Shown: piece after piece, positions 5,110 to 64,000 of the stretch
Position numbering within the stretch: the stretch's first letter is position 1
Layout of the letters: every line of letters starts with the position of its first letter
DNA from: Candidatus Alkanophaga volatiphilum
GTDB taxonomy: Archaea; Halobacteriota; Syntropharchaeia; Alkanophagales; B39-G2
DNA: 64,000 nucleotides
Assembly (NCBI GenBank): GCA_029259545.1
Contig: JAPHEE010000002.1
Span: 5,601 to 69,600 of the forward strand
Reading direction: 5' to 3'
The notes under the pieces: generated by a model
What the model saw: the letters and a program-made list of their open reading frames with translations, nothing else
Databases searched by the model: none
What the model was told of the DNA's origin: nothing
Program-made: the position numbers and the translations under genes

Positions 5110-5118
5110 CTACATCAC

Positions 5119-6012
5119 CTACCCCTCAGGACTCGTCCGCTCTCTTGAGCCCGGGAGGAGCATCTCCGGCTCTATCCACTCTTCACCCTCGTTGATATAA
5201 AGCCCACCGTATTCTACGAGCGGCAGCTCGGGATTGTGACCCATGAGCACCCTACCAGCGGCAGCCCTGCCAAGCACCGTCAAAATCTCAGAGCGGCTCT
5301 TGTAGGGAGCGACGTCCCAACGGTAAGTGACGTCGTATGCCCGCAGCTCACGCTCGGTCAGCGGACGCCCTACTGGTATCGGGTTGTCGAGAACCTCGGC
5401 GTGCTGGTTCTTGATGTACTCGACCTCGCCTGTCTCTTTGTTTAGCATGTAACGGCGACGGGCGTCGAACATCAAACCGTCCTCGTCGAGACGAAGCGAA
5501 TGCCCGTGCACGGTAACGCCCCGAATGCCCACCCTAGCAGGGTCAAAGATGTGCGTCTCGATAAGCATCTTCGCCGCCTGCTCAAGGTCCCGCTCCCGCA
5601 TTTCAAGGAGCGTCCTTCCGGAGTAGACGACGGTGTCAATTCCTCTTAGCCTTGACATGTAAACACGAGCCCTAAGCCATGGTGCCATCGGCGGGTAATA
5701 CATGGAGTCGGCAAACTGGAGGAAACGCAAGCGGTCACCAGCCCTCGCTCCAGGTGTTGGCTCTACTATCTCCTTTATTGGATCGTACTTCTCGACAAGC
5801 TCATCTAGCGGTGGGTGTACGCTCACATAGGATTCGCCTTTGAATCTGTGCCCCAGAAGTTCCACAAGGCTGTCATCAGGAATGGAGCGGAACTTCGTGA
5901 GTCGCTTTGAGGAGTCCATTGCCCTCCTTCTGTTCGCCGACACCCTGTCAGGTCCCGGGTAGTACTGCCTCTTATACTTAACTTTCTTGACCTTCTTCTT
6001 AGCAGCCGCCAT
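5119..6012 (-). CDS. mcrG: methyl/alkyl-coenzyme M reductase gamma subunit-like (set 1)
   Basis: LLGHR, VHPPLDE, YSGRTLLEMRERD and HGHSLRLDEDGLMFDARRRY are typical McrG blocks. It carries an extra Lys-rich N-terminus (MAAAKKKVKKVKYKR) and a C-terminal extension. Confidence 0.85.
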   Translation of the reverse strand: MAAAKKKVKKVKYKRQYYPGPDRVSANRRRAMDSSKRLTKFRSIPDDSLVELLGHRFKGESYVSVHPPLDELVEKYDPIKEIVEPTPGARAGDRLRFLQFADSMYYPPMAPWLRARVYMSRLRGIDTVVYSGRTLLEMRERDLEQAAKMLIETHIFDPARVGIRGVTVHGHSLRLDEDGLMFDARRRYMLNKETGEVEYIKNQHAEVLDNPIPVGRPLTERELRAYDVTYRWDVAPYKSRSEILTVLGRAAAGRVLMGHNPELPLVEYGGLYINEGEEWIEPEMLLPGSRERTSPEG

Positions 6013-6026
6013 TTCGCACCCCTCTC

Positions 6027-7406
6027 TTAAACCTCATCCTTTATCTTCTCAGCAGCCTCAGCCACCCTCTTCATCGGGTTCCTAAATATCGGGAACTCTT
6101 GGGCTATTGTGAAGTACAAGCCCGAGGTCGTGGTAACCTTGAATATCTGCGTTCCGGCGTCAAGACACGCACACGCAGCCGAAATGGGCGTCAAGAAGCC
6201 AGACGTGTTCTTAACGATAACGTGGTCGCAGGAGAATGCGCCTGGGGCGGCGCCGCCGTAAAGACCGTGCGTGTAGAACACATAACCCTGCCCGCAGCCG
6301 AGCATGCGTCCAGCGTCTGGGTCTGGTAAGCCACAGGTCTCCCAGATGAGCATGTCCGGGAAGAATGCGATTACGCTCGCAACTCCTTGGACGGCACGGG
6401 CGGCAGCACAGTTAACAATAGCGGCAGCTGTCAGGCCTGCTATGGAATAAGCGTTCCACAGGCATAGGTCCGGTGCAGCCCACACAACTGCTCCCGAAGG
6501 CAATACCCATGGGTACTTGTCGCCCTTCTTTACTATCACACCGTCCTCAAGCGCTCTCTGCAGCATGCTCGTCATGACATCCCCAACAGTCCCTTTCGCA
6601 TTTTCCTTTATCAGATCAAGAACCAGACAATTTGCATTGAAGCCCTGATACGCCGACGTCAGGAGCATGTAACGCTCATACCAGCCGACATTGTAGCCCA
6701 TTTCTGCCGCCGCTCCTTGTTCAAGGATTGTACCTATGGCAAGCGCCCACATCGTCCGCATGTCAGCGAGCGCCGCAATGTGGTTGATCATTATGGACTT
6801 GAGTCCATTACCTAAGCCCTCCAGCTCTGAAGGCAGCTTCAAAAGCGGGCGAATTGGGTGCCCCGGCGGCGTCCCGACCGTCTGCGGATATCTACCCCAC
6901 AATGCCGACTTCACCAGTCCGATCTTGTACAAGTTCTCCAAGGGGTGCAAATTTGCTATTTTCGTTATTATCTGACCGAGTGCGGTCACAACTCTCGTAA
7001 ACGCTGGCGAAGTGTCATAAGAACGATTTAAGACTTCATCCGAGAGCTGGACTACGAGGATCGTACCGCCCTCAAGCACCCGTACCTCAGTCCCATCGTC
7101 GGGCCTCACCTGTAAGAGCTTGACAAGCTCATCTGCAATGTATTCGGCGTTATCCACGAGCTCGACATCGAAACCGTACCACGGCATCTTTATCTCGTCC
7201 TGCCCAACTATTGTGGACCAGCCAACTCTGCCCGTCCTGAGCATGTCCTCCAGCTTCTCAAGCTCAATGACTGTCGTCCTCTTCATGAACCTGTAAACCT
7301 CACCCATGTAGGGGTTCTTGTAAGGATGCAACGCCTCTATCGGTATGTCCTTTGCAAGCAGGTTCCCCTCATCGTCGTACAGGTCAACCTTGTCCTCGTA
7401 TTTCAT
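6027..7406 (-). CDS. mcrB: methyl/alkyl-coenzyme M reductase beta subunit-like (set 1)
   Basis: DKVDLYDDEGN, ERYMLLTSAYQGFNAN, FYTHGLYGGAAPG and CLDAGTQIF are typical McrB blocks. Full length at 459 aa. Confidence 0.85.
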   Translation of the reverse strand: MKYEDKVDLYDDEGNLLAKDIPIEALHPYKNPYMGEVYRFMKRTTVIELEKLEDMLRTGRVGWSTIVGQDEIKMPWYGFDVELVDNAEYIADELVKLLQVRPDDGTEVRVLEGGTILVVQLSDEVLNRSYDTSPAFTRVVTALGQIITKIANLHPLENLYKIGLVKSALWGRYPQTVGTPPGHPIRPLLKLPSELEGLGNGLKSIMINHIAALADMRTMWALAIGTILEQGAAAEMGYNVGWYERYMLLTSAYQGFNANCLVLDLIKENAKGTVGDVMTSMLQRALEDGVIVKKGDKYPWVLPSGAVVWAAPDLCLWNAYSIAGLTAAAIVNCAAARAVQGVASVIAFFPDMLIWETCGLPDPDAGRMLGCGQGYVFYTHGLYGGAAPGAFSCDHVIVKNTSGFLTPISAACACLDAGTQIFKVTTTSGLYFTIAQEFPIFRNPMKRVAEAAEKIKDEV

Positions 7407-7488
7407 CTCCTAACACCGCTCCATCTTTATGGCTCCTACCTCTTCATATTCAATCCATAATATTTAAATCTCACTATGCTAACTACGA

Positions 7489-7893
7489 ATGGGGGTGTTG
7501 TGCGTGGGTATAAGAATAGGCGATGTCGATCCTATAAAAATGCTCCTTGAGGGGAAGACGTCGTGCCTGTTTTGCGTGTACTACAACCCAGATGTGGGCT
7601 GCGATCGAATATACAAGCAGACGAGGGGCAGGATGAAAATAGACCTGTCAGATCCGTTAAACAAGACGTGCGACGCCTTCCAGCCGGCGATACGCTGCGA
7701 GGACTGCGTCCACTTCATGGTACAGAAGCTTGAAGAGGCGTTCGCAGGGCGTACCGAAAAATACATGTGCACGAAGCACGGGCTGGAGGATGCTGATATA
7801 AAGCTATGCCCTGATTATACCCCAAAAGAAGAGAAGAGAAAGGAGTTTGAGGAGCTTTATAAGAAGGCGGGCTTTGAGTTCAAGGTCGTCTGA
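7489..7893 (+). CDS. small Cys-rich hypothetical protein
   Basis: CLFC...C...C...CEDC...C...C pattern. The stop lies 2 nt before the start of the radical SAM gene. Divergent from mcrB set 1. Confidence 0.45.
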   Translation: MGVLCVGIRIGDVDPIKMLLEGKTSCLFCVYYNPDVGCDRIYKQTRGRMKIDLSDPLNKTCDAFQPAIRCEDCVHFMVQKLEEAFAGRTEKYMCTKHGLEDADIKLCPDYTPKEEKRKEFEELYKKAGFEFKVV

Positions 7894-7895
7894 TA

Positions 7896-9362
7896 ATGAG
7901 GATGGAAACGAAATCGTTGTGCCCGGAATGTCTCAGCGTGATTCCGGCGGAAGTTTACGAAGAGGGCGGGAAAATTTTAATAAGGAAGAGGTGCGAGGAG
8001 CACGGCGAGTTCGAAGACATTTACTGGGCGGACGCCGAGCTTTACAAAAGGTTTTCTGCATTTGAGAGCGTAGGCAAGGGTTTTGCGACGAGGGCGGCGG
8101 AGCGTGGCTGCCCCTACGATTGCGGGCTCTGCCCCGCACACAAGACGACGACGCTCCTTGCGAACATCGACGTGACGAACCGCTGCAATCAACGATGTCC
8201 GACGTGCTTTGCGAATGCCGCCGCCTCCGGTCGCCTTTACGAGCCCTCGCAGGACGAAATTTGGAAGATGCTCGAGGTTTTGCGCTCTGAGGTGCCGCCG
8301 TGCCCCGCCGTGCAGTTTGCGGGCGGCGAGCCGACCGTCCGTAGCGACTTCGTGGAGCTCGTTAAGATGGCAAAGAAGCTCGGCTTCGCCCAGATACAAG
8401 TGGCGACGAACGGCATCATGCTTGCGAAAAGCGTGGAGTTCTGCGAGCGGCTTGTGCATGCTGGACTTCATACCGTCTACCTGCAGTTCGATGGCGTCAA
8501 GGAGGAAGCTTACGAGAAATTAAGAGGGCGGAGGGTGTTGAAAACTAAGTTAAAGGCGGTTGAAAACTGCAGAGCTGGCGGGATAAGGAGCGTAGTGCTC
8601 GTGCCGACGCTCGCAAGAGGAGTGAACGACGATCAGATCGGCGACATCATCAGATACGCCGTCGAGAACCTAGACGTGGTGCGGGGGGTGAACGTCCAGC
8701 CCGTGTCCTTCACGGGCAGAATTGATAAAAGCGAGCTCCGCAAGCTCAGGATTACGATCCCCGACTTCATAAAGCTCGTGGAGGAGCAGACCGATGGGCA
8801 GATCCCCAAAGAAAGCTTCTACCCCGTGCCCGCAGTCGTTCCGGTGTCGAGGTTTGTCGAGGCGTGGAAGGGCGAGCCGCAAGTAGCCTTCACGGTGCAC
8901 CCACACTGCGGCGCCGCTACTTACGTGTTCGTCGACGGTAAACGGCTTATCCCTATTACAGACTTTGTGGATGTCGAAGGTATTCTTGAGTTCTTGAAGG
9001 AAAAGGCGGAAGAGCTGGAGCGGGCGAGATTGCCGGCGCTTGCGAAGCTGAAAGTTGCGATAAGCGCAGCGAAGCAGATCAACAAGTTCATAGATGCCGA
9101 AAAGGCGCCGAGTGGTGCGGAATCCATGCGCAAAGTTATCGACATTCTGACAAGAGGTGACAGAGAGTCAACGGCGGAGTTCCACCGCCGTACGCTGTTC
9201 ATCGGTTGCATGCACTTCATGGATCCCTACAACTTCGATATCAAACGTGTGCAACGCTGTGGCATACATTACGTGACGCCTGACCTCCGCATCATTCCGT
9301 TCTGTACCTACAACACCTTGCATCGTCCTGAAGTCGAAGCGAAATTTAGCAGGACGTTGTAA
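7896..9362 (+). CDS. radical SAM enzyme of the MJ0619 / tetraether lipid synthase (Tes, GDGT-MAS) family
   Basis: N-terminal Zn ribbon CPEC...C. Also GCPYDCGLCPAHK, DVTNRCNQRCPTCFA (CxxxCxxC), QFAGGEPTVRSD, RITIPDFIKLVEEQTDG and a C-terminal CMHFMDPYNFD...RCGIHYVTPDLRIIPFCTYN. Confidence 0.75.
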   Translation: MRMETKSLCPECLSVIPAEVYEEGGKILIRKRCEEHGEFEDIYWADAELYKRFSAFESVGKGFATRAAERGCPYDCGLCPAHKTTTLLANIDVTNRCNQRCPTCFANAAASGRLYEPSQDEIWKMLEVLRSEVPPCPAVQFAGGEPTVRSDFVELVKMAKKLGFAQIQVATNGIMLAKSVEFCERLVHAGLHTVYLQFDGVKEEAYEKLRGRRVLKTKLKAVENCRAGGIRSVVLVPTLARGVNDDQIGDIIRYAVENLDVVRGVNVQPVSFTGRIDKSELRKLRITIPDFIKLVEEQTDGQIPKESFYPVPAVVPVSRFVEAWKGEPQVAFTVHPHCGAATYVFVDGKRLIPITDFVDVEGILEFLKEKAEELERARLPALAKLKVAISAAKQINKFIDAEKAPSGAESMRKVIDILTRGDRESTAEFHRRTLFIGCMHFMDPYNFDIKRVQRCGIHYVTPDLRIIPFCTYNTLHRPEVEAKFSRTL

Positions 9363-51985: not shown

Positions 51986-52624
51986 GTGGTGAGCGTCAGC
52001 CGGGACCGTTGGGAAGCAGAGAATGTGGAAGGCGGGCTGCTCGTCTGCGGGGATTGCCTTGAGTGGTTGAGGAACAACAGCGTGGAAGTGCACCTCACGT
52101 TTCTGGACCCGCCGTTCCGTCAGGGCAAGGATTACCGGTATTTCGACGACAATCAGCCTGAGGACGTTTACTGGAACTGGCTTGAGGAGGTCGTCGCCCG
52201 TGTTTACGAGCTGACGGCGGGCGGCGGCGCCATCTACTTCATGCATCGTGAGAAGAACGCCGAGCACGTCCTGAGGACGCTCAGAGAGACGGGCTGGACG
52301 CTCCAGAACCTCATAGTCTGGAAGAAGCGGACCTCCGCAGTCCCCTACGCTCATGGCTTCTCGAAGGCGTACCAGATAATCGCGTTCGCCACGAAGGGCA
52401 AGAAGCCTCGGGTGTTCAATAGGCTGCGTGTCGATTACCCGCTGCTCCCAGAATACAAGTATCCGAGGGAAAACGGGATTTTCGTAACCGATGTCTGGGA
52501 TGACATCCGTGAGTTGACTTCGGGATATTTCGCCGGTGAGGAGGCGATCAGAGATGAGAAAGGAAACAGGGTGCACACGCAGCAGTCGCCAGTCGCCCTG
52601 CTCCTCGGTTCTGTTGAATCTTAG
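51986..52624 (+). pseudogene. N-terminal fragment of a beta-class DNA methyltransferase (DPPF motif IV)
   Basis: LTFLDPPFRQG...HTQQSPVALLL, then the frame leaves homology at 52607 and stops. Motif I is found 2.4 kb downstream at 55045 onward. Confidence 0.75.
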
Positions 52625-52633
52625 GGTGTTGCA
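52607..52633. repeat. left arm of 27-bp imperfect inverted repeat bounding the AT-rich cassette
   Basis: GGTTCTGTTGAA-TCTTA-GGGTGTTGCA matches the reverse complement of 55036-55062 at 24 of 27 positions. Confidence 0.85.
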
Positions 52634-52650
52634 TTTGTGATGTTGCAAGT

Positions 52651-53718
52651 GTGGTGGTAGAAAACTTCAAAAAAGAATGGAACCCATTTAGTTATAAGGT
52701 GCGTAAAATGTCTGATAAGGGCAGTAATAATGGAAAAAATAAAAACTTAGAGGGCATTAAATGGGTCGTAAAATTTCCAGTCGACACTTTGCAAATTTAT
52801 TTCCCATGTTCTTTAGAACTTCAAGATGAACTAATAAAAAGAGGTTTTAAAGTCCCTGGTGATAAAAGCAGAAAAATAAAAACACCGATACCATTGATTT
52901 ACTCGAATTTTAGAGGATGGTTAGTCCAACCAGAACCAATAACAATTGAAAGGTTAATTCCACCAGAATGGTATGGAAAAACTGCTAAAGAATTAGGTTG
53001 GAAGGAAACTATTAGCAGAGGTAAAACGGCATATCATTTACCACAGGAAGAAGTTTGGGTCAATATTGGCTTTGATAACAATGGTTTAATACACTTTAAG
53101 TTAGATATAAGAGGCTATCATCTTGAAAGAACATCTATAAGAGGTATAAATCCTGAAAAATGGAATAACTGGGCAATGTTTTATATAAGTGCAGAATATT
53201 TAGACGATTTGATAAATACCATTGCCAAGTTTCTCAATGTAACTTTAGCACGGAAATTATATCCAATTTTAGAGAAACAGCAAGGTGGAAAAGAGAAAAC
53301 ATATTATGCTTCGCCTACGCGGAGTAAAAGTCTGGGTATACCGGTAATAAATTATAGTTTATGTCTCGGGTGTTTCGATCTTGCATTACTATACTTTAAA
53401 CATAAATCAATTGAAAATAACCTAAACCCAGATATAGTCAAGGAGCTTAAACTTCGAATAACATACGAACCTACCATAAATGCAGGTTTAAAAGTTGGGA
53501 TTGCAAAGATTGAAGGAAAACGGCCTCAAATAATGTTTAAATTAGCTTCAAATACGCCCATTCAAATTAAAGGCATCCTAAAACCTATTATTGAAGGTAA
53601 AGCTAGGGGTAATCTCTGTTTTTGTAATCATCGATCAAAAACCCAACTAATCATAGCTAGGGCATTGGATATTTATTCTGCATTGTCAGTAACGAAACAG
53701 AAGTTAAAAGATCTTTAA
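52651..53718 (+). CDS. hypothetical protein, candidate restriction endonuclease of the inserted cassette
   Basis: AT-rich 355-aa ORF, convergent with the cassette methyltransferase and overlapping it by 4 nt. No catalytic motif recognised by eye. Confidence 0.4.
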   Translation: MVVENFKKEWNPFSYKVRKMSDKGSNNGKNKNLEGIKWVVKFPVDTLQIYFPCSLELQDELIKRGFKVPGDKSRKIKTPIPLIYSNFRGWLVQPEPITIERLIPPEWYGKTAKELGWKETISRGKTAYHLPQEEVWVNIGFDNNGLIHFKLDIRGYHLERTSIRGINPEKWNNWAMFYISAEYLDDLINTIAKFLNVTLARKLYPILEKQQGGKEKTYYASPTRSKSLGIPVINYSLCLGCFDLALLYFKHKSIENNLNPDIVKELKLRITYEPTINAGLKVGIAKIEGKRPQIMFKLASNTPIQIKGILKPIIEGKARGNLCFCNHRSKTQLIIARALDIYSALSVTKQKLKDL

Positions 53719-54632
53719 TGCTTTTTATTTTTCTTCTTTTGCAGTTTTTCATTAATAACTTTTCTTAACTTAGTTCGTAAATGTTTTGCATCATCTCTAA
53801 TAATGAACTCTACTTTTACACTTTTTACACCTTCTCCATAGAATGTTAGAAGAGTTTTAGTCTTGAGTCCTAATCTCTTCTCTATGATAGGCTTAAGTTC
53901 TAAATCTATTTCATAACCGATACTATTTCTATTTAACTCTTTGGCAACAACAGCAGTTGTTCCAGTTCCAAGGAAAGGATCTAAAACTATTTCTCCTACA
54001 TAACTATAGAGTTTTATCAATCTCTCTGCTAATTCCTCAGGAAATACTGCTGTGTATTTACTTATGTCATTTGACGGCAAGACATTTGTTATCTCCCACA
54101 TTGACAGGTACCACTTCTCATTTTGAAATTTGCTTAAGGGTATTTTTGATTGCTCTTTCAAGGATTGGGATATTCTACTATAATTAAATCTTCCTTTTTG
54201 AAAAATCACTATTTCTTCGTAAATGTTATCTGGATAATAGTACATGGGATATGGATGTTGAATTAAAACGCCACTTCTCCTACTTATTCTTATATACCCC
54301 TCTGGTTTTTTCCAAATAATCTTATCTCTGTATTTGAATCCTATTTCTCTCATTATTTTAATTATGTCGCTAACTATAGGGTATAGCTCTCCATCGATTC
54401 TTACATCTTGAATTACGAAACATGCAATTCTTCCTTCAGATAATACTCTATAAATTTCTTTACCAACACTTTTAATTAATTCCAAATATTCCTCATAGTT
54501 TTTGAACAATCCGGGAAAATCGAATGGAGCGTTAAAGTAAGGTGGCGAAGTTACAACAAGATGTATCGAGTTATCTGCTAGCTCTTTCATTCTTCTGGCA
54601 TCTCCAAATATTATTTTATGTGTTGTGCTCAT
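53715..54632 (-). CDS. beta-class DNA methyltransferase (SPPY motif IV, probably N4-cytosine or N6-adenine)
   Basis: LVVTSPPYFNAPFD near the N-terminus and LDPFLGTGTTAVVA near the C-terminus. AT-rich. Confidence 0.85.
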   Translation of the reverse strand: MSTTHKIIFGDARRMKELADNSIHLVVTSPPYFNAPFDFPGLFKNYEEYLELIKSVGKEIYRVLSEGRIACFVIQDVRIDGELYPIVSDIIKIMREIGFKYRDKIIWKKPEGYIRISRRSGVLIQHPYPMYYYPDNIYEEIVIFQKGRFNYSRISQSLKEQSKIPLSKFQNEKWYLSMWEITNVLPSNDISKYTAVFPEELAERLIKLYSYVGEIVLDPFLGTGTTAVVAKELNRNSIGYEIDLELKPIIEKRLGLKTKTLLTFYGEGVKSVKVEFIIRDDAKHLRTKLRKVINEKLQKKKNKKH

Positions 54633-54853
54633 TCTTTCTCCTCCCTCACCTTTAGGGGTTTAACTACTATAATTAATTCTCCACCTTCAGCCCTAATCTC
54701 CCAATTAAGCTTATCTCCTTCTGAAAGATTAAACTGCTTAACAATGCCCATAGGTATTGTGGTTCTTAATGATTTACTCTTTGATGTTGCTCTAGTGATT
54801 ACGGTAGTCTCCCCCATCTTCTTATCACCTGTTATAATTATAGGTAAAATCAT
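54629..54853 (-). CDS. AbrB/SpoVT-family small DNA-binding protein
   Basis: SLRTTIPMGIVKQFNLSEGDKLNWEI. Its stop overlaps the methyltransferase start (ATGA). Confidence 0.65.
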   Translation of the reverse strand: MILPIIITGDKKMGETTVITRATSKSKSLRTTIPMGIVKQFNLSEGDKLNWEIRAEGGELIIVVKPLKVREEKE

Positions 54854-54908
54854 TTATAAAGCTTTTGGTCTAAGATTTTACCGAAAGATTTAAATATGTA
54901 AATATCCA

Positions 54909-54924
54909 TACCTATAAATAGGTA
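54909..54924. promoter_or_regulatory. palindrome TACCTAT-AA-ATAGGTA upstream of the AbrB-like/methyltransferase operon
   Basis: 7-bp inverted arms that include a TATA-like core, about 55 nt upstream of the AbrB-like start on the minus strand. Confidence 0.4.
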
Positions 54925-55002
54925 AAATATTAGGTAAGGTGAAGAGTATGGACATCGTACCAATGTGGGGGAAACCAAAAGATGAAAGAGCAATAAGGGG
55001 TT

Positions 55003-55320
55003 ATGCTATACTCGTTAAAGAAGATGAGCCTTACTTGCAACACCCAACGTTTCAACAGAACCAGCGTGCCCGGCGACCTTGTCCTCGACCCGTTCGCCGG
55101 AACGGGAACGACGCTCGTCGTCGCAAAGCAGCTTAAGAGGAGGTTCGTCGGCATCGAGATCGACCCGGAATATGTGGAGTTGATAAAATGGCGGCTGAGC
55201 CGCCTGCGACCCGCCGACGACGTTTCACGCTACCTTCACTACTACCGTTTTACCCCTAACCTCCACGAAATATGGCCGACGGAAAAGGCGAGATTCGTGC
55301 AGCGGAGGTTGGACGTTTGA
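55003..55320 (+). pseudogene. C-terminal fragment of the split beta-class DNA methyltransferase (motif I)
   Basis: QRFNRTSVPGDLVLDPFAGTGTTLVVAKQL...GIEIDPEY. Homology begins at about 55045 and GC returns to the host level there. Confidence 0.75.
55036..55062. repeat. right arm of 27-bp imperfect inverted repeat
   Basis: TGCAACACCC-AACGT-TTCAACAGAACC. It overlaps codons QRFNRT of the methyltransferase fragment. Confidence 0.85.
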
Positions 55321-55345
55321 TGTTTGAGGACTCTTTGAGCTTTTC

Positions 55346-56278
55346 GTGAGCGCCGCAAAGCTCCTGAGGGAGGGGAAGCTCAGCCTGAACGATAGGTTGG
55401 AAAGAATTGTGCTGGTAGCGGTTAGGGACAAGCTGGCTTACGCCGACGACCGCCGGTGTGCGAGGGACGTGGGCTTCGACTTCTGGGAGCCTTTGAGGAG
55501 TCGAATGTCAGAGGAAAAGTTTGAAGCCACCTTGAGGGAGGCAGGAGTGACGAGACCCTATTCAGCGTCGAACCTTTTCCTGGATTTCCTGTTCCGAACG
55601 AAAGAACATGGCGGCAAGCCGAGCCGTGAGAGCGTGCTCGAACTCAAGGATTCAGCAGGCGGCAGCATCGCATCCTTCAACTCGATCGAAGTGGAAAAGC
55701 TTGGAGGAAATGGATGCGATAAACGGGGCGAGCCCGAGCTTGGTGTCACGGATCGCATCCCTGATGGATGGAATTCCGCTGAGCCACGGGGGTACCTGAA
55801 GTTCGAGCGCAGGTGCTTCTACCTCGTGCGGACGCATCGCAACAAGGCTAACGTCAAGCTCTCCATTGTGGACGGCTCCTTCTTCGAGACGGTCCCCAAG
55901 GAGCATCTGCTCTACCGGCTGTTCATGCAGGTGCTGCGAGCGCACATTGAGAGCAAGCGGGTGGAGATATCGAAAGAGGAGCTCGAAATCGTCGAAAGGA
56001 CCCTCAGGCACATCACCGATCAGAGAATCATCGCAGGCTCGAAAATCATAGAGGGCGCCTCGGTCAAGCCGCGGCTGCGGGTGATGGCGGAGGTGCATTC
56101 CGAAGGCAACCCGCACAGCCACCATTACGAAATCCCGGAGCGGAGCTTCAACCTCATCTTGGAAAAGACGAGGGAGGCGGAGCGGCTTGAAAGCTCTCTG
56201 GAAGGGCTCGACGTCGAAACCTTCACGATCCTCCATAAGAGGAACGGCGAGCACGTGGTGTTTTCGTTGCAGCTTTAA
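55346..56278 (+). CDS. hypothetical protein, possible partner (endonuclease?) of the resident split methyltransferase
   Basis: GC-rich 310-aa ORF starting 25 nt after the methyltransferase fragment. No motif recognised. Confidence 0.35.
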   Translation: MSAAKLLREGKLSLNDRLERIVLVAVRDKLAYADDRRCARDVGFDFWEPLRSRMSEEKFEATLREAGVTRPYSASNLFLDFLFRTKEHGGKPSRESVLELKDSAGGSIASFNSIEVEKLGGNGCDKRGEPELGVTDRIPDGWNSAEPRGYLKFERRCFYLVRTHRNKANVKLSIVDGSFFETVPKEHLLYRLFMQVLRAHIESKRVEISKEELEIVERTLRHITDQRIIAGSKIIEGASVKPRLRVMAEVHSEGNPHSHHYEIPERSFNLILEKTREAERLESSLEGLDVETFTILHKRNGEHVVFSLQL

Positions 56279-56300
56279 AGTCGCATTCTAAAAGACGTTC

Positions 56301-56708
56301 ATGCGGGGCAAAGTAGCCGTGATAATGGGGTCCAAGAGCGATGAGGGTGTTGCGAGGAAGGCGGTGGAAGTTCTTGAGAGGCATGGAGTCGCTTACGAGC
56401 TGAGGGTGCTTTCCGCGCACAGGAATCCCGAGGAGCTTGACGAGTACGTGAAGAAGAGCGATGCTGACATCTTCATAGCGATCGCGGGACTTTCGGCGGC
56501 GCTCCCCGGCGTCATCGCAGCGAAGACCGAAAAGCCGGTGATCGGCGTGCCGGTGAGCGCAAAACTCTTAGGGCTTGATGCCTTGCTTTCGATGGTACAA
56601 ATGCCGTCAGGCGTGCCCGTCGCCACCGTAGGCATCGATAACGGGGCGAACGCAGCGCACCTCGCGGTGCGAATTCTGAAATTAAAATGCGGCGACGAGG
56701 AGAGCTAG
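56301..56708 (+). CDS. purE: N5-carboxyaminoimidazole ribonucleotide mutase
   Basis: [21 protein letters not shown] and GVPVATV. Confidence 0.88.
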
Positions 56709-57098
56709 CTGTCGTCCTCTCTCTACTTGCCGCAATCGCTTCACTGGACAAGATGCGAAGTTTGCATACGAGACGACACGTAATGGCTTCGGGACAAAGA
56801 AGCATTTTTATCATCCCGTTGCTTGCAAGACCCCATAAGCGTGGGGATACGCAAGGGGGAGGCGGGCGGGTAGTTAAATACTTTGAAGTTGTATGGTGTA
56901 ACGACCCCGTAATAGCCGTTAGGGCTGCCGTAAGGGCTGGTAGAAGTAGCCCGTGAGCCGTAAGGATAGTGGGTAGTGGCGGCGTGAGCCGGGGGATAAG
57001 GCTCGTAAAGAGCAAACTCCCCACGCAGCCCCTTGCGAAGCGAGGGGTAGTTCACGATACCAAGGTCTAGTCACCTTGGGCTGAGGAGAGGATAGACA

Positions 57099-57390
57099 TG
57101 ACGGATCTGAAAGAATATTGGGTCCTGCCGTTGGTAGTTATCCTAATAATCGTGGGCATCGTTTTGAATTTTGTTTATGGGAACATGTTCTCAGCAGGAC
57201 AATTCTCATCAAACTACTTTGCAGCGGTGATTTTTCCATAGGGATATTCGCGGCTGGCATCTTCGCTATAGGTCTGTTTTCAATCGAAATTTTTTCAATA
57301 GGCATATTTTCAATTGGTATTTTCTCCGTAGGCCTTTTCTCTGTAGGATTGTTTGTTATTGCAAAATACAAAGAAACGTTGAAGAAATAA
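57099..57390 (+). pseudogene. small membrane protein with G-[IL]-F-[SA]-[IV] pentapeptide repeats, apparent frameshift near 57235
   Basis: ATG 57099 encodes MTDLKEYWVLPLVVILIIVGIV...AAVIFP then a stop. Track ORF 57118..57390 continues in another frame with GIFAAGIFAIGLFSIEIFSIGIFSIGIFSVGLFSVGLFV. Confidence 0.4.
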
Positions 57391-57465
57391 ACGCTTACTA
57401 CGTTTGCTACGTAGACGGATAAAAATAGAGATCGCATCGTTTGTGCAGTACTTGCACCCGTTGGG

Positions 57466-58470
57466 CTACTTAAGTTTCAAAGTCTCAGCAATAGTCTGGT
57501 AGAATGGGCAGGAGCGGTAAAGCAAGCAACGCCGCCCGTGAAACGATGGCTCGTCGATATTATATTCCCTCTTAAGTGTACTCATGTTGTGTACGCACGA
57601 TTTCCCCTTAGGGGTCAGCTTGTCGAACCTCAAGGGCTTACATGCAATTTTACCGACGACCCACAAGCCGCCGTTCACTTCAAGGGGCGAGGCACCTGCC
57701 ACCGTCGAGAAATACGAAATCGAAAGCTTAATCGGCTCGTCTCCTGCCTCGTTCAGCAGTGTTGCCGCCTGCGAGGGCGTATATCCTGCCTTGAGTAAAT
57801 ATTCAAAAACGAGCCCAGTCCTGAGTGCAACTCTACGAACATGTACATCAATCGGCTGGAGCAGCGAGCACTCTTCTTGCGTGAGATTTGATGCTCGAAG
57901 ATGATAGAACAGGTCGCGGAGGAACATCGAAGCCGTCTTGTCGCCGACCCCCGGAATGCTTTTTAAGCTTTCAAGAATTCTTTCTAGGTGCGTGCCGCGT
58001 TCATACTCGCTCATTACGTAGTCCACGATGTTAAAGTCATATCTTTGCAATCCACTCGTGAATTCAATAGTTCCTACGACCATCCTCCGGTCCTCACTGT
58101 TATTTACGCCCGCCCTTTTCAATGCGGCATCTAAAGCTCGCAAGTCCAACTCGGGCTCGTCGCCGAGCATCTCGCGCAAAACCGTGATGGTCTTATCTAA
58201 AAATTTCCTGCTAACGACATCACTTCGCCCTCGGAAGAACACCCTGTGGAGGAAGAAGTTCAATGCATGCCACCAGTCGGAGCGGAGAGTCGAAAGATAT
58301 CCCCTTTTATTCGAGCCAGCTCTTAAGGCTTCATCCGTGATCCATTTTTCCTCTACGGCTCTGAAAATCGGCACATAGGCTTCAGAAACTATGCGAACGA
58401 CTATGATGCTGCTCTTTTCACGCCCGTCCGCCGTCTTAAGACTCATTCCCAATGACATTTTAACAGACAC
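57466..58470 (-). CDS. HhH-GPD superfamily (endonuclease III-like) DNA glycosylase family protein
   Basis: LKSIPGVGDKTASMFLRDL and PIDVHVRRVALRTGL hairpin-helix-hairpin signature. Cys residues near the C-terminus. Confidence 0.6.
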   Translation of the reverse strand: MSVKMSLGMSLKTADGREKSSIIVVRIVSEAYVPIFRAVEEKWITDEALRAGSNKRGYLSTLRSDWWHALNFFLHRVFFRGRSDVVSRKFLDKTITVLREMLGDEPELDLRALDAALKRAGVNNSEDRRMVVGTIEFTSGLQRYDFNIVDYVMSEYERGTHLERILESLKSIPGVGDKTASMFLRDLFYHLRASNLTQEECSLLQPIDVHVRRVALRTGLVFEYLLKAGYTPSQAATLLNEAGDEPIKLSISYFSTVAGASPLEVNGGLWVVGKIACKPLRFDKLTPKGKSCVHNMSTLKREYNIDEPSFHGRRCLLYRSCPFYQTIAETLKLK

Positions 58471-58485
58471 GCCTATATTCCAAGC

Positions 58486-60766
58486 GTGACTTCAAACTTT
58501 TTCAGCATCACTCTTCCGCCCGTAGAGAGCGAAGAACCCGCAAGGACGAAGCACATAATACTGAAAAGACCTCAAGCTTCGTGGGCGCAGTCGGTGTTTT
58601 CAGTGCCTTGCGGGCGTCATCTTGAAAAGCTCATGCCGAACAGGGATTATCCTTACGAGGGACTAAGCGTCATGCTCAGCGGCGAAAACCACCTCGACGG
58701 CGTCGCCATGGGCGTGAAGACCGAGCGTCGTAACTGCGTACGGTTGAAGCCGACGAAGGTCGTCGCATCCCCTTGGAAAGCCATTTATTTTTACGAGGGC
58801 GATGGAGGCGTACGAGCGTCCGCGGATTACTACCTGATGGCTCTTAGAGGCGAAGGCATCGCCGCCCGCCTGCTTTTCAGAACAAACGCTCCAGTCCTCG
58901 TGCTTGAGCCGTTTTTCGACATGAGACACATGTATGACGAATCCTCGCCGGAAGAGCACCGATTTTACGAGATAAGGGACGGCTGGCTCGCACGTAGCGG
59001 CGACAGGCTTGCATGCCTTCGTGTCCATGGTTACGGCGGCTCTAAGATAAAATGCGAATTAAGGAGCGCCCGTTACGAGATTCGCTGGCGCTATAAGCTC
59101 GGCTCCGGCTATCGGACGAGAACGGACGGCATCACCTTCATAAGCGAATACAAGACGCTCGTCTCGCCCGGCGAACTCAAAGTGCGTTTTTGCAGCAGCG
59201 CTGCCGAAACGCCGAAGAGTGACGTGGGAAACGCCTGCGTGCTCGTGCTGGCTTGCGGCGCCTCTGAACAGAGACTTAGAGAGCTGCATGAAACCGCTTT
59301 GAGCGAGCTGAAGAAGAACGAGGGGGCGGAGCTGAGATGGGCGGTCGAAGCGGAGAAAAGGCTTAACGTCGCTGAGCGTGCTGTCGTTCTCAGAGCGCTT
59401 GCGCTCGCAAAATTTGGCATGTTCAAGGGCTCGAAATTTTTCCAAGACGCTGGGGATTTCTGGTTTAGGACGGTCTGGCTGAGAGATCAGTTTGAAGCAT
59501 TGCTTTCAAATCTGGAAACGCTCTCACGCATCGGCTTCGCACCGCCCGCAGACCGCCTAGACGTGCTGAAAACCGTAAAACGCATAATTTTCGACGCTTT
59601 TGAACTTCAGGACGAGCACGGCAGACTTCCTAACAGATTCCCGGAGCGCCGCGACGCCCCACTCGAATACAACACAGCGGACGCCACACTACTTGCATTC
59701 CTCGTCGCCGGCAAGCTTTTTGATTTTATCAGAGAACCGATGGAGAAGAAGAACTTTGCACTCCGCATTTTACAGCGTGCGGAGCTTACTCTCGAGTGTT
59801 TTCGCAGCAACTCGCAAGAGGAAATCGATGGCGGCCCTGTGCTTTGCGAGAACGCCTTGCTTTCCGCAGTACCTTCGCATTCGTGGACCGACGGGCTACG
59901 AGAAATATGCGGAACGAAAATGCCGATACGCATGCCTGAAAACTGGGAGCTAGAGCTTATTTCGAAGCTCGGTGCGGAGAATGCCGTCAAAGAGGTGAAC
60001 AGACCAATATTCTTCTTGCCGGAAATAAATGCACAATGGACTTTAGGGCATTTTGAGAGATTCGCTGATTTTTTAGAGAGTTTTGGCTGCGATTCTGAGA
60101 GTCTTAATGACGAAACGGCGGCAGCGGAGCTGCGGCTGCGTGCGAGGCACTGGCGGGCGTTGCGTCTAAAGGCGTCGGACAGCTTCAAAAAGGTGCTCAG
60201 GTCCGAGCGATTCTTGTGCAACCTCGTGTCTGCGGGCGGCGTTTTGGGGTGGCGGGCTGACGAGACGCTTGGCTCGCCGGCAGTCGTCGCTCTCAGCCTG
60301 CTCTCTGACTTTTTTGACGATAGCGAGTTGCGGGCGTTCGTGGAAGTCGTGAAGGGCGAGCTGCTCGTGCGGCGTAAGGGTCTTTGTTTCGGCGTTCTCG
60401 TGCGGGCGTCGCCGAAGCGTTGTTACTACGGCGACGATGAATATCACGAAGCCATGGTTTGGCGAGGGACACGCCTTACTTAATTCGTTTGCTGTTGAAG
60501 GTTGGCGAGGAGGGGCTTGTGCGTGAGATTTTGCGCAGCAACCTCGAACACCAAAACGGAGAAGGCTTCGTTTTTTACAACGCCGAACTCTTCAGTCCCG
60601 ACAACTGCAAGCTCACGCCCGTCAAAAATCCGGTGCAGCTCTGGTCGCAGTGGACCGATCCATTCTTAGCCTTTAAGAATGTTGTTGCTGCTAATTCCTG
60701 CCTTTTGAAAGGGGGCGGGGCCCGCCCCGAACGCCTGTGGACACTGATGCCTCTGCCCCGGAGGCT
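58486..60766 (+). pseudogene. amylo-alpha-1,6-glucosidase / glycogen-debranching-enzyme-like protein, frameshifted near 60460
   Basis: WLRDQFEALL, PLEYNTADATLLAF and EYHEAMVW, then a frame change. Track ORF 60459..60860 continues with RDTPYLIRLLLKVG...QLWSQW. A single-nucleotide indel would explain it. Confidence 0.6.
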
Positions 60767-61034
60767 GAGAGAGCTACGGGGCAAGCACGGTGGACGAAGC
60801 AGGAACCTCCCCTTGCTGGATGCCTCTCACTTCATGAGGGGAGGAGGTCACAAGGCTTGAGGAAAATAATTTTGGGGAGGGTGACCTCCTCTAAAGTCAG
60901 GGGCTCCCACCGGGGGAGGTTGGGGGTGTGCCGGACGAACCGCCCCGTCGGGCGGGGTTACCGCAGTCCCTCCCGCCTCCCCTAATTCATCTTATGAATA
61001 AATTCATAAGCTTTCTTAGCCGACATTTTTGTAA
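60767..61034 (-). mobile_element. MITE-like element, family 1
   Basis: The reverse complement reads TTACAAAAATGTCGGCTAAGAAAGC...GATGAATTAGGGGAGGCGGGAGGGACTGCGGTAACCCCGCCCGACGG...GAGGAGGTCAC...GTAGCTCTCTC. It is collinear with the IS left end plus the tnpB 3' region. Confidence 0.65.
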
Positions 61035-61714
61035 TGACGTGCAAGATTCAATGGCTGGGGCATGCCGCCTTCAGGATAACGACAGCAAGCACAACTATTT
61101 TCATAGATCCGTGGCTTGAGGACAATCCGATGAGCGCTCTGCGTCTGGACGATGTTGAGCATGCCGATTTAATTCTCGTGACGCACGACCATTTCGACCA
61201 TGCGGCGGATGCTGTGAAGCTTGCGAAGAAGACCGGCGCTAAGCTCGTGGCACAGCCCGAGACCGTAGAGAGGATGCGGGGCGAGGGGTTGAAAGGCGAG
61301 CAGGCGGTCGCCATGAACATCGGCGGCACTTTCAGGCATGCTGACGTTGCCGTCACGATGACGCAGGCGTTCCACAGCTCAGCCACGGGAGCTCCCTGCG
61401 GCTTCGTTATAAAGACGGAGCATGGCACGATCTACCACGCCGGCGACACCGGGATCTTCGAGAGCATGCGGCTGCTCGCCGAGATTTACGGGATTGATGT
61501 CGCGCTCCTGCCCATAGGCGGGCACTACGTCATGGACCCGACGCAAGCGGCGTACGCCTTAAGGCTCTTACGCCCGAAGGTCGTAATACCAATGCATTAC
61601 AAGACGTTCCCGGTGCTCGTGCAGAGCGCCGACGACTTCGTCACGCTCGCGAAAGAGCACGCCCCTGAGACCAAAGTCGTCGTCCTGAACCCCGGCGACA
61701 CTTATGAGCTTTAA
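61034..61714 (+). CDS. MBL-fold metal-dependent hydrolase (UPF0173 type)
   Basis: [22 protein letters not shown] and YHAGDTG. Confidence 0.8.
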
Positions 61715-61716
61715 AG

Positions 61717-62037
61717 ATGGTAGCCAAGGCAGCAGACGGGAAGATAGTGATCTGGCCGGCATATTTGGACGCCACCAAGCCCAAGAGCCGGGGCAGAAAA
61801 ATTTCAAGAGCAAAAGCGGTGAAGTCGCCCAGGCTTTCAGAAATCGTGGAGGCGGCGAGAAAGCTCGGACTTAACCCAGTGGTCGAGGAGGAGAAAGCAT
61901 TCCCGAGCTCGTGGTGGGAGTTCAGTGGCAGGGTCCTCGTGGATAAGAAGGGCAGTAAGACGGAGTTACTACAGCGGATCGCCGAACTTATAAAAGAGGC
62001 AAGGGAGAAAAAAGCGAGAGCGAAGCAAAAAAAGTAG
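61717..62037 (+). CDS. srp19: signal recognition particle protein SRP19
   Basis: [20 protein letters not shown]...LGLNP and a Lys-rich tail. Confidence 0.85.
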
Positions 62038-62040
62038 AAA

Positions 62041-62697
62041 ATGGTTTACGACTTTCACACCCACTCCATATTCAGCGACGGCGAGCTCATCCCGAGCGAG
62101 CTCGTACGTCGTGCGTTCGTGAACGGCTACGAAGCGGTTGCAATCACCGATCATGTAGATTTTTCGAATTTAGAGCCCGTGCTCTCGGCATTGCGGAGGT
62201 TTGCAGAGCACGCTCCTGAGAACGTCTTCATCGGCGTGGAAATTACCCACGTCCCTCCTGATAAAATCGAGAAAATAGTACTCGCCGCCAGGCGGCTCGG
62301 CGCCGAAATCATTGTGGTCCATGGGGAAACTTTGACGGAGCCTGTCTACGAGGGCACGAACGCCGTCGCCGTCAGGACGCCGGGGGTGGATATACTCGCG
62401 CATCCGGGGCTTCTGAGCCCTGAGGACGCTGAGCTTGCGGCAGAAAACGAAGTCTTCATAGAGATAACTTCAAGAAAGGGTCACTGCCTCACCAACGGGC
62501 ACGTCGCTCGTGTTTCCAGAGAAGCGGGTGCTAAGTTACTTTTGAACACGGATGCGCACGCTCCGGGCGATCTCATCAACGACGAGCTCGCTGCGAAGAT
62601 CGTAAGAGGCGCCGGGCTTGGCGAGCGCGATACCGTAAAAGTTCTCAGAGAAAATCCAAAAGTGCTTATCAAAAGGATAGCAGAAAAGAAAAAATGA
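62041..62697 (+). CDS. PHP-domain phosphoesterase (histidinol-phosphatase-like)
   Basis: YDFHTHSIFSDG, AITDH, HGE and NTDAH metal-ligand blocks. Confidence 0.7.
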   Translation: MVYDFHTHSIFSDGELIPSELVRRAFVNGYEAVAITDHVDFSNLEPVLSALRRFAEHAPENVFIGVEITHVPPDKIEKIVLAARRLGAEIIVVHGETLTEPVYEGTNAVAVRTPGVDILAHPGLLSPEDAELAAENEVFIEITSRKGHCLTNGHVARVSREAGAKLLLNTDAHAPGDLINDELAAKIVRGAGLGERDTVKVLRENPKVLIKRIAEKKK

Positions 62698-63107
62698 GAA
62701 TAAAGGGTAGGCGGATCTCGAAGGGCGTCGCCACGGGCGAGGCTCTCGTTACGAGCGAGCGCATTTCTTTTCTCGGCGGCTTGGACCCGAAAAGCGGCAT
62801 CGTGATCGACGAGGAGCACCCCCTTTACGGCGAATGCGTACGTGATAAGGTTCTCGTTTTTCCGGGTGGTAAGGGCTCTACCGTTGGCTCTTACGTGCTG
62901 TATCTAATGAAAAAGTACGGAACGGCGCCTGCAGCGATGGTGAATGTCAGAAGCGACGTGATCGTGGCGGTCGGCGCCATTATCGCCGAGATTCCGCTCG
63001 TGGACGCGCTCGAAAAGGACCCTTTCAAGGTTATAAGGAGTGGGCAAGTGGTGCTTGTTAACGGCACTGAGGGCTACATCGAGATAAAAGCATCAGAAAA
63101 GCTGTAA
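62694..63107 (+). CDS. aconitase X swivel-domain protein (DUF126; phosphomevalonate dehydratase small subunit-like)
   Basis: GEALVTSERISFLGGLDPKSG...VLVFPGGKGSTVGSYVL. Confidence 0.65.
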   Translation: MRIKGRRISKGVATGEALVTSERISFLGGLDPKSGIVIDEEHPLYGECVRDKVLVFPGGKGSTVGSYVLYLMKKYGTAPAAMVNVRSDVIVAVGAIIAEIPLVDALEKDPFKVIRSGQVVLVNGTEGYIEIKASEKL

Positions 63108-63701
63108 CGCTCCCAAGGCAATAAGAGTTATAAGTCCAGAGCGCAGCCCTGAGCCTAAGATGACAGCAAGCCAGACGCGTAACGGCGACATGCCGAGGAT
63201 GCGTCCGATGATGGAGCCTGTGATCGCCCCCGTCCCGTATATTGGAATCATGACGAAAAGCACAAGTCCCACGAACCCAAGCCTTCTCACCCATGTGTAC
63301 TTCCCCATAAACTCCCTCCCTCTCTCTTCGGTCCTGCGCAGAAGCCTGCCCACGCCCGGAATTTTTTCAGCATAGCTGATGTTCCACACGAGGAAGAGGG
63401 CAGTGGTTGCATCTATGAAAAGGATGAACGTGAATATGGAGGCGGGGTGCAGCCCCATGCTCAAGCCTGCAGGTATGCCTATTTCCATGCCGAGGGGGTT
63501 GAAGAAGTAGATGAAGAAAACCGCCGCGTATTTCACCTGCACTTCGGGCTCAACGAAGCTTTTTATGGTGAAGATGGCAGCTGCTGCGAGCAGAAATGGA
63601 ATTACAAGTTTCAGAAGCGGCAGAAGTTTGGAGTTCACGAGAATGGTCTTTGCATACAACTTCTCACAACACTTTCTCACTCTCTCTAACTCTAAGCCCA
63701 T
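63093..63701 (-). CDS. small polytopic membrane protein (putative small multidrug-export family)
   Basis: Hydrophobic helices throughout. Trimmed to MGLELERV because the track N-terminus overlaps rpoP. Confidence 0.45.
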   Translation of the reverse strand: MGLELERVRKCCEKLYAKTILVNSKLLPLLKLVIPFLLAAAAIFTIKSFVEPEVQVKYAAVFFIYFFNPLGMEIGIPAGLSMGLHPASIFTFILFIDATTALFLVWNISYAEKIPGVGRLLRRTEERGREFMGKYTWVRRLGFVGLVLFVMIPIYGTGAITGSIIGRILGMSPLRVWLAVILGSGLRSGLITLIALGALQLF

Positions 63702-63709
63702 GCCGACTA

Positions 63710-63847
63710 CTACTCCGCCTTTACTCTTTTTATGAATGTTGGTCTTTCCTTGACCAATATGCGGTAACCACAATATGGACACTTAACGCCCGGATACTCA
63801 TAGTTGACCTCCACCTTCCTACGACATCTCACACAGTAGTACACCAT
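63710..63847 (-). CDS. rpoP: DNA-directed RNA polymerase subunit P (Rpo12)
   Basis: 45-aa ORF, below the track cut-off: [45 protein letters not shown], with a CxxC...CxxC ribbon. Confidence 0.8.
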
Positions 63848-63860
63848 GCCCATCCCCCTG

Positions 63861-64000
63861 CTACTGCGTCTTTTCCTCACCTTCGGGCGTCACGGCGACG
63901 CCCTCACCACCCTCAAAGAACCTCCGCACCACCCTTTTGGCGATCGTGCCTGCGGGCGTCTCCGGGACGTATGCGCCGCCGCTGAACACAAGCTCGCACT
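63861..64000 (-). CDS. rpl37ae: ribosomal protein eL43 (L37Ae), C-terminal part; N-terminus beyond window
   Basis: ...[31 protein letters not shown].... The usual archaeal rpl37ae-rpoP linkage is present. Confidence 0.7.

Follow-up and report, generated by a model that had tools for sequence, protein, structure and literature searches.

A gene for a beta-class DNA methyltransferase in the archaeon Candidatus Alkanophaga volatiphilum is split by a DNA segment that brings restriction-modification (R-M) genes of its own. The gene lies in a stretch of 64,000 nucleotides (contig JAPHEE010000002.1, forward-strand positions 5,601 to 69,600) that is called the window here, and all positions are given in its numbering. 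The 5' fragment of the resident gene (51986-52606, plus strand) comprises the 207 codons for residues 1-207, covers positions 1-171 of the PF01555 profile (E 5e-21), and its frame enters the inserted segment for five codons (GSVES*) before a stop at 52624. The 3' fragment (55063-55320, plus strand; SVPGDLVLDPFAGTGTT...) holds the motif-I part and covers profile positions 178-220. The break after 52606 that a first-pass annotation of this DNA had described is therefore real, as is the strongly AT-rich character of the insert: the G+C content is ~58% around the locus (53-66% in the flanks) compared to 30-36% within ~52650-55050. The junctions of the filled site were recovered at 100% identity in three separately assembled contigs (one from an ENA assembly and two from Logan run assemblies; L003-L005, where L and P numbers denote loci and proteins of the comparison set), which excludes an assembly artefact.

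The limits of the insert were defined to the base by an empty site. Homologues of the joined resident methyltransferase are widespread (4,244 matches), and searching with the joined protein identified an uninterrupted, 95% identical orthologue of 285 residues (P0001). It is encoded on two metagenome contigs (L001 and L002) with the same gene order as the window (thiolase, zf-ChsH2/OB protein, methyltransferase, ..., PurE) and 91-95% DNA identity to it on either side of the insert; for the orthologue itself the DNA identity is 93-95%. The window is colinear with these contigs up to ...CTGCTCCTC (52606), where homology ends, and homology restarts exactly at AGCGTGCCC (55063); between the matching flanks the empty site has 18 bp, CGCATCATTTTAGCTTCG, which make up the codons RIILAS. 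The insert thus spans 52607-55062, or 2,456 bp, with both of its inverted repeats wholly inside, and 18 bp of target have been replaced with nothing duplicated. The absence of a direct target duplication had been noted correctly before, but the restart of the gene had been placed at 55045 and the length of the insert given as 2,438 bp, with the codons QRFNRT read as native. P0001 and nine more distant homologues all read ...SPVALLL-RIIL(A/S)S-(V/L/M/F)P... across the junction, never QRFNRT, which is encoded by the terminal repeat of the element itself. The two fragments do join in frame, as had been stated, but the canonical motif spacing across the join is a coincidence, 18 bp of repeat having taken the place of 18 bp of gene.

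Ends and cargo of the insert

The insert is bordered, exactly at its junctions, by the imperfect 27-bp inverted repeats that the first-pass annotation had recognised (52607-52633 against 55036-55062, with 24 of 27 positions matching). The gapped pattern GGTTCTGTTGAA-N5-GGGTGTTGCA that describes them occurs only twice in the 64 kb, at the two borders of the insert, with 0 occurrences expected from 100 shuffles. Terminal repeats of the IS6/IS26 insertion sequences (ISs) follow the consensus GGTTCTGTTGCAAA, with GG and cTGTt as hallmarks, and archaeal repeats are longer (PMC6807381, PMC7986276). The tips of the insert (GGTTCTGTTG; both read GGTTCTGTTGAA) bear the two hallmarks and fit this consensus, which is a bacterial one, at 10 of the first 10 bases and at 11 of 14 (left) and 12 of 14 (right). 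The left end (52607-52661, plus strand) consists of the 27-bp terminal inverted repeat (TIR) GGTTCTGTTGAATCTTAGGGTGTTGCA, followed by subterminal GGTGTTGCA / GGTGGTAG repeats; over ~55 nt it is nearly the same as ends in L035, L017 and L050, and L048 is similar up to the first open reading frame (ORF). At the right end (55029-55062, minus strand) 34 nt are kept that include the other TIR (GGTTCTGTTGAAACGTTGGGTGTTGCA on the minus strand), and these 34 nt are identical in L059 and L061 and differ at one to three positions in L068 and L081.

Between the two TIRs lie, from left to right, a nuclease gene, a methyltransferase gene, an abrB-like gene and a transposase stub. The nuclease gene (52708-53718, plus strand, 336 residues, or 355 from an alternative start at 52651) had been listed as a convergent unknown ORF. 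Convergent it is; its product, however, belongs to the PhoI family of restriction endonucleases (PADLOC REase_II PDLC03542, E 1e-96). It has 126 homologues; of these, PhoI of Pyrococcus horikoshii is 51% identical (E 2e-88), and a protein of 'Candidatus Alkanophagales archaeon MCA70_species_1' matches at 100%. Searches of Pfam and the PDB gave no match. The adjacent gene (53715-54632, minus strand) encodes the cognate beta-class DNA methyltransferase of 305 residues with an SPPY motif (PF01555, E 3e-52; PADLOC MTase_II, E 4e-89), and its closest solved structures are 2zie and N4-cytosine methyltransferases. Both this gene and the AbrB-like gene (PF04014) had been assigned correctly from the outset.

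PhoI cleaves GG/CC, the cut predicted for the window nuclease too. M.PhoI is tabulated as a GGCC enzyme producing N4-methylcytosine (m4C; PMC11033074), the modification likewise predicted for the methyltransferase of the insert. The two adjacent genes, homologous to the characterised PhoI pair, form a type II R-M system that would act at GGCC. The resemblance to the PhoI system of P. horikoshii OT3 extends to the convergent gene order and to the SPPY motif typical of N4-cytosine enzymes. Unlike that system, the window copy has an AbrB-like gene ahead of it and IS ends on either side, and the related pairs of L006 and L007 have neither. Allowing for up to three mismatches, the IS-end repeats are absent from the PhoI-like loci L006 and L007 and are hence not part of the R-M pair itself.

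GGCC is also the most depleted tetranucleotide in the host DNA of the window (1-52606 plus 55063-64000), with 30 occurrences observed against 323 expected from trinucleotide counts (ratio 0.09); CGCG follows at a ratio of 0.25. Such a depletion would be expected if GGCC restriction had acted on this DNA for a long time, and the depleted motif is the one that the incoming system is predicted to recognise. The empty-site relative L001 shows the same avoidance (7 observed versus 48 expected), which means that it predates this insertion.

The abrB-like gene (54629-54853, minus strand; PF04014, E 2e-8) encodes an AbrB/SpoVT-MazE-like DNA-binding protein and overlaps the start of the methyltransferase gene by 4 bp; its true start is probably the ATG at 54817, giving 62 residues. 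Between it and the transposase stub lies a putative divergent promoter/operator region (54832-54947), in which a TATA-like TTTATAAA is flanked by inverted copies of GGTAAAAT, with a third copy at 54921. Three of the four copies of GGTAAAAT in the window fall within 86 bp of it (54843-54928), and the cluster looks like an operator common to two divergent promoters. The region is conserved in L048, L059, L080 and L090, and GGTGGTAAAA, which is similar to GGTAAAAT, belongs to the subterminal IS-end repeats in relatives. The AbrB-like protein would probably repress the shared divergent promoter region, in a role like that of the C proteins of bacterial R-M systems. C proteins are helix-turn-helix proteins that bind C-boxes upstream of their own gene and usually precede the nuclease gene. 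As in those systems, the gene of a small DNA-binding protein heads the operon and overlaps the next gene, with a palindromic motif at its own promoter, a layout that by analogy suggests that the R-M genes are timed by autoregulation when a new host is entered. In contrast to C proteins, the window protein is AbrB/MazE-like with a swapped-hairpin AbrB/SpoVT domain and no helix-turn-helix, its gene precedes the methyltransferase, and one promoter region would serve both this gene and that of a transposase.

Relatives with the same ends

A 19-base pattern of the ends was scanned over one genome per prokaryotic species, and a stricter 22-base pattern over JGI metagenomes. The former gave 44 genome loci, where our uniform-composition estimate is ~4, and the latter 22 loci. 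Almost all of them are archaeal (Nitrososphaerales, Thermoproteota, Bathy- and Hadarchaeota, and Guaymas Basin Archaeoglobales and Thermococci), and in all the same ends recur at about 60 archaeal loci. In viral contigs neither the end pattern nor relatives of the AbrB-like protein were found, and no viral vector was identified. Just outside the tip, 8-12 nt are similar in several loci (CTTAGGTGTAGG in the left flanks of L016, L020 and L052; CTTAGGTAGAGC in L059), a hint that the target may be a preferred one or that these copies sit inside another repeat.

Elements in L047, L029 and L040 encode transposase proteins of 371-383 residues between these ends. A Pfam scan of the L047 and L040 proteins found SWIM and PF13610 (DDE_Tnp_IS240) domains, with a weak zinc-ribbon in L047, and L029 and L043 were tied to these two transposases by tblastn. 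Direct repeats of 8 bp flank transposase-bearing and other relatives (CGAGAGAG, CGTTTTTG, TAAATTTT, AAATATTA and CGATATTC), a duplication present in L081, L040, L043, L047, L029 and L051. Pairs of the same ends also occur at the size of miniature inverted-repeat transposable elements (MITEs; 292-437 bp). The elements of L029, L040, L043 and L047, from Nitrososphaerales, Methanothrix and Thermoplasmatota, measure 2.9-4.3 kb, and besides the transposase gene they have one to three ORFs that match nothing in Pfam; passenger genes seem common in this archaeal IS6 branch. A further element with these ends (L054, 1261-3144) carries non-R-M cargo, an ORF pair that by eye resembles a HEPN/nucleotidyltransferase toxin-antitoxin system.

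The architecture of the parent is visible in two relatives. One, in the finished chromosome of Thermococcus sp. 2319x1 (L081), measures 4,885 bp, has both ends and is flanked by a perfect 8-bp duplication (CATGGAGT); inside it are a 5'-truncated IS240 transposase gene, a divergent abrB and a type IIG-like R-M+S module. The perfect duplication implies canonical IS6 transposition for such R-M-laden elements. In the other, L090, a frameshifted SWIM+DDE transposase gene of nearly full length diverges from an abrB-methyltransferase-ORF operon, and the IS end follows. Two more cassettes, L059 and L068, are complete but lack a transposase; they have near-identical ends, abrB and other R-M cargo.

Of the features of these elements, the AbrB-like gene served best as a marker. 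A database search returned 194 proteins of 70-100% identity (mostly 80-95%) from across the archaeal phyla (Korarchaeum, Thermococcus, Archaeoglobus, Acidilobus, Bathy-, Verstraete- and Asgard archaea), the AbrB core is near-invariant in eight elements with different cargo, and in ten loci tblastn located abrB copies of 65-98% identity beside these IS ends. Wherever a locus was examined, abrB adjoins or overlaps the beginning of a methyltransferase gene. It heads at least eight R-M modules of different kinds: a PhoI-like nuclease with a beta-class methyltransferase (window and L080), a PabI-like nuclease with an N6_Mtase (L048), an 842-residue HSDR_N-N6_Mtase-S fusion (L068), HSDR_N-N6_Mtase plus S (L059 and L081), PF01555 methyltransferases of 550 residues with a 330-residue ORF (L070) and of 329 residues with a 144-residue ORF (L090/L091), an N6_Mtase with a HinP1I-like nuclease (Korarchaeum, L082-L089), and a PF01555 methyltransferase with a Tsp45I-like nuclease (L092). 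The kinds seen thus comprise PhoI-, PabI-, Tsp45I- and HinP1I-like type II systems, type IIG enzymes, and N6-methyltransferases with S.

The module of L080 (positions 1-2865; JGI 3300033145) consists of PhoI-like nuclease, methyltransferase and abrB genes with 80% DNA identity to window positions 52747-54893, lies in GC-richer surroundings and shows no IS ends. In Korarchaeum cryptofilum and related contigs (L082-L089, ~5000-8000), abrB, the N6 methyltransferase gene (678 residues) and the convergent HinP1I-like nuclease gene form an AT-rich island that adjoins an EVE-domain gene and has no detectable IS ends, and in some contigs the nuclease gene is split (156 plus 80 or 56 residues). L050 (2727-3914; the same as L062) is a 1,188-bp element of abrB and a 174-residue ORF, flanked by a direct repeat matching at 7 of 8 positions. 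Other candidates were discarded: L056/L071 as large elements, owing to a poor partner repeat (19/22) and an interior of ordinary genes, and the L058 transposase as an autonomous reference, being a degraded remnant.

Origin of the insert and its atypical junction

The insert at 52607-55062 very probably derives from an archaeal insertion sequence of the IS6 family, a 'transporter' IS, and is no longer autonomous: its ends match those of an autonomous IS, it has no functional transposase, and the internal deletion from which it arose can still be traced. A remnant of an IS6-family transposase gene lies at 54948-55030 (plus strand), its first ~27 codons (MDIVPMWGKPKDERAIRGYAILVKEDEP) joined to the IS end by that deletion. 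The 210 bp from abrB to the right tip are colinear with the abrB-transposase intergenic region of L090 and then with the 5' end of the transposase gene; the remnant peptide GKPKDERAIRGYAILVKEDEP aligns with the N-terminus of the L090 transposase (GKPENKRAIRGYAILAKGDEP), beyond which only the final 34 nt of the IS end follow. An independent deletion of a like kind, differently placed, is found in L059. As an IS6 element, the window copy possesses the TIRs, ~27 codons of the IS240-type transposase gene and no 8-bp duplication.

The parent would have been of a type with IS6-like TIRs, a SWIM/zinc-ribbon plus DDE (IS240-type) transposase and a divergent operon of abrB followed by an R-M module, and an internal deletion would have taken the transposase gene from codon ~28 to 34 nt before the right tip. 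A low-GC archaeon living in the same hydrothermal habitat may then have passed on the cassette horizontally, and a related transposase acting in trans would have inserted it, joined precisely at both tips, into the gene of the resident methyltransferase. The earlier description of the locus as a mobile R-M unit inserted into a resident methyltransferase gene is supported in this respect, and the unit was horizontally acquired. With its transposase reduced to a stub, the element could move only with a related transposase supplied in trans, and we infer such trans-mobilisation for the window copy. The frame of the stub runs on through the right TIR into the resident 3' fragment, in a frame other than that of the methyltransferase, and forms a 65-residue ORF (54939-55136). 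Transcription from the old transposase promoter may proceed outward into this 3' fragment and the gene of 310 residues that follows it.

What is atypical is the junction. Intramolecular replicative transposition by IS6-family elements yields tip-precise adjacent deletions and the loss of flanking repeats (PMC7986276). The loss of 18 bp without an 8-bp duplication could accordingly reflect a secondary or aberrant step, for example an adjacent deletion or a cointegrate resolved by intramolecular transposition. In the latter case a cointegrate with the donor replicon would have been resolved by an intramolecular event and not by homologous recombination, so that one copy remained, without a duplication and with a deletion beside one end that could be of any length. 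Both joints in the window lie exactly at the GG tips, and this favours joints made by a transposase over random end-joining.

Several observations weigh against the derivation from an IS6-family transporter by transposition. The duplication typical of the family is absent from the window copy and 18 bp of target are missing, and an adjacent deletion would require a second target only 26 bp from the first, which is unlikely a priori. L059 and L068 likewise show no clear 8-bp duplication; a clear one is found in L081 (8/8) and in the small abrB element L050/L062 (7/8), making three copies without as against two with, and duplication-less junctions may therefore be systematic rather than accidental. 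Within the 64 kb, tblastn detected no IS6-type transposase beyond the stub of ~27 codons, nor is there a further copy of the ends. The R-M pair stands alone in L006 and L007, with neither abrB nor IS ends, and, together with L080, these loci indicate that the R-M module can move by other routes. Finally, the regulatory role attributed to the AbrB-like protein is read from gene order and motif clustering.

Part of this evidence would suit a capture of the cassette independent of any transposase, in which a linear or circular molecule was joined into a double-strand break by host end-joining or microhomology repair, the IS ends being mere relics. The break itself may have been provoked by restriction attack while the new system was establishing itself. 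There is no target duplication, a target deletion as small as 18 bp is typical of break repair, R-M-abrB modules do exist without IS ends, and the junctions of L059 and L068 point the same way. Nevertheless we regard such a capture as unlikely: both junctions fall at the GG tips, as they do in L081, and random end-joining would not preserve both tips with such precision; neither junction shows microhomology, and the deleted 18 bp neither contain nor adjoin a GGCC site.

More improbable still is that the allele reached this lineage already interrupted, donated by a related strain through homologous recombination that spanned the methyltransferase and the genes beside it. Allelic replacement is known to have hot spots at R-M loci (PMC2853133), homologous methyltransferases are widespread and the flanks are ordinary host-like DNA. 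The identity of 91-95% to L001/L002 on both sides, however, shows no break in the flanks and no recombination tract, and an import would merely shift the insertion to another genome and leave the junction unexplained. As to the original proposal, that the inverted repeat was made at insertion by inverted copying of target DNA or an inversion-linked duplication, it can practically be discarded in spite of the right arm being in frame with the 3' fragment at a seemingly canonical distance from the GD.VLDPF motif, because the orthologue and the nine other homologues lack QRFNRT, the empty site holds no part of the repeat, and the same 27-34 nt bound unrelated elements in unrelated archaeal genomes. 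The repeats are thus ordinary IS6-family TIRs rather than the product of an uncharacterised insertion or inversion mechanism, and only the 18-bp target deletion is out of the ordinary.

The resident system and the wider setting

The insertion would inactivate the resident methylase and endow the cell with an R-M system of predicted GGCC specificity. Directly downstream of the 3' fragment lies a candidate restriction endonuclease gene of the resident system (55346-56278, plus strand, 310 residues). Its homologues, of 48-49% identity, follow directly after homologous methyltransferases in the unrelated contexts of L074 and L077-L079, and its product has a D80 ... E-L-K motif of the PD-(D/E)XK kind, which together make it the likely partner nuclease of the resident methylase. 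The protein found no match in Pfam, NCBIfam, PADLOC or the PDB, and its single-sequence AlphaFold2 model has a mean pLDDT (the model's own confidence score) of 32.6. The longest frame starts at the GTG at 55346. An ancestral ATG at 55320 overlaps the stop codon of the methylase and is shifted from the reading frame by one base, in the window as well as in L001 and L002; as the latter two have empty sites, the start-codon shift predates the insertion.

The states of the two resident genes are combined in an unexpected manner. In L001 the methylase is intact and the partner gene (6858-7810) has two nonsense codons, two frameshifting indels and a D80N substitution, while in the window the partner gene is undisrupted past its start; of the sites at which the two outgroups have the same residue, eight retain it in the window and two in L001. 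This is the opposite of the usual pattern, with an open nuclease gene beside a broken methylase in the window and a dead nuclease gene beside a whole methylase in L001. It is possible that the nuclease was already poorly expressed, that the insertion is very recent, that the two methylase halves still work, or that the 310-residue protein is not a nuclease. The direct conflict between two R-M systems that the first-pass annotation had envisaged is plausible but unproven. Protection of the resident sites by the incoming methylase is not to be expected, given that the resident enzyme is closest to N6-methyladenine enzymes (MboIIA, CcrM) and the newcomer to m4C enzymes. Further downstream, the window has a second, short low-GC patch (57100-57450, 38-46% G+C) with overlapping ORFs on both strands that encode repetitive hydrophobic peptides (GIFSIGIFS...) and, at 57277-57333, a 15/30-bp tandem repeat.

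With respect to known mobile elements, the insert resembles the archaeal branch of IS6/IS26 (DDE_Tnp_IS240) in its initial GG and CTGTT, in the agreement of the first 10 nt with the consensus, in a repeat longer than the bacterial one, and in having transposase-bearing relatives with ends of its own type that make 8-bp duplications. It differs in its lack of a transposase, its 2.4 kb of passenger genes, and a target deletion of 18 bp in place of the duplication. IS6-family elements normally move passengers as pseudo-compound transposons between two IS copies, and a review of 2021 lists a single member with an internal passenger gene, ISDsp3 (PMC7986276). With transporter ISs (tIS), mobile insertion cassettes (MICs) and MITEs the insert shares the arrangement of IS ends around genes unrelated to transposition, and the window copy is transposase-less as a MIC is; unlike them it carries a (putatively) regulated R-M module, and one vehicle of ends plus abrB serves at least eight such modules.

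Transposon-like R-M units with imperfect inverted repeats have been described in bacteria, two of them resolved with 8-bp duplications, but no archaeal case survived that screen and the repeats were not assigned to an IS family, with a transposase in trans raised as a possibility (Furuta, Abe and Kobayashi 2010, PMC2853133). In a related case the PluTI R-M unit is flanked by IS982 remnants (PMC2875022). The window element is like the former units, being a compact set of R-M genes bounded by imperfect inverted repeats within a genome; what sets the archaeal case apart is that its IS family could be identified, as could parents that bear the transposase and the deletion by which autonomy was lost. 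A literature search of incomplete coverage found no description of an archaeal IS6 family of R-M vehicles or of AbrB-type R-M controllers, and the assignment of an R-M-carrying tIS/MIC to the IS6 family, in archaea, is new as far as these searches show. The element is a variation on known kinds: a transporter IS of the IS6 type, together with a derivative that has lost the transposase, is specialised on R-M genes and has a conserved AbrB-type gene at a promoter region that the transposase gene would share.

A broader proposal can be put forward only tentatively and is more doubtful than the origin of the window copy: that a hitherto undescribed, phylum-crossing family of archaeal IS6-type transporters is a standard vehicle for R-M systems, in which the AbrB-like protein would couple R-M expression to transposition and transposase-less copies would integrate with loss of target. 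Three of the four complete R-M copies have no clear duplication, and target loss is shown for the window copy only. If true, the target-loss pattern of transposase-less R-M copies would suggest that integration by IS6-type transposases can have a result other than the canonical one.

For the older question of how bare R-M pairs flanked by inverted repeats move, the locus offers an answer defined in sequence, since the repeats can be assigned to an IS family, transposase-bearing parents have been found, and the deletion that abolished autonomy is still visible. IS6-family elements are best known for spreading antibiotic resistance as pseudo-compound transposons, and those of archaea also exist as single units with internal defence cargo. 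Their AbrB-type protein is pointed to as a portable control module for unrelated R-M systems, in keeping with the role proposed for it above. The pair of filled and empty sites, with a broken methylase beside an open partner gene, constitutes a testable natural case of R-M displacement. Overall, the element in the window of this heat-loving archaeon would be a hitch-hiking defence cassette, and not the product of a new insertion mechanism.

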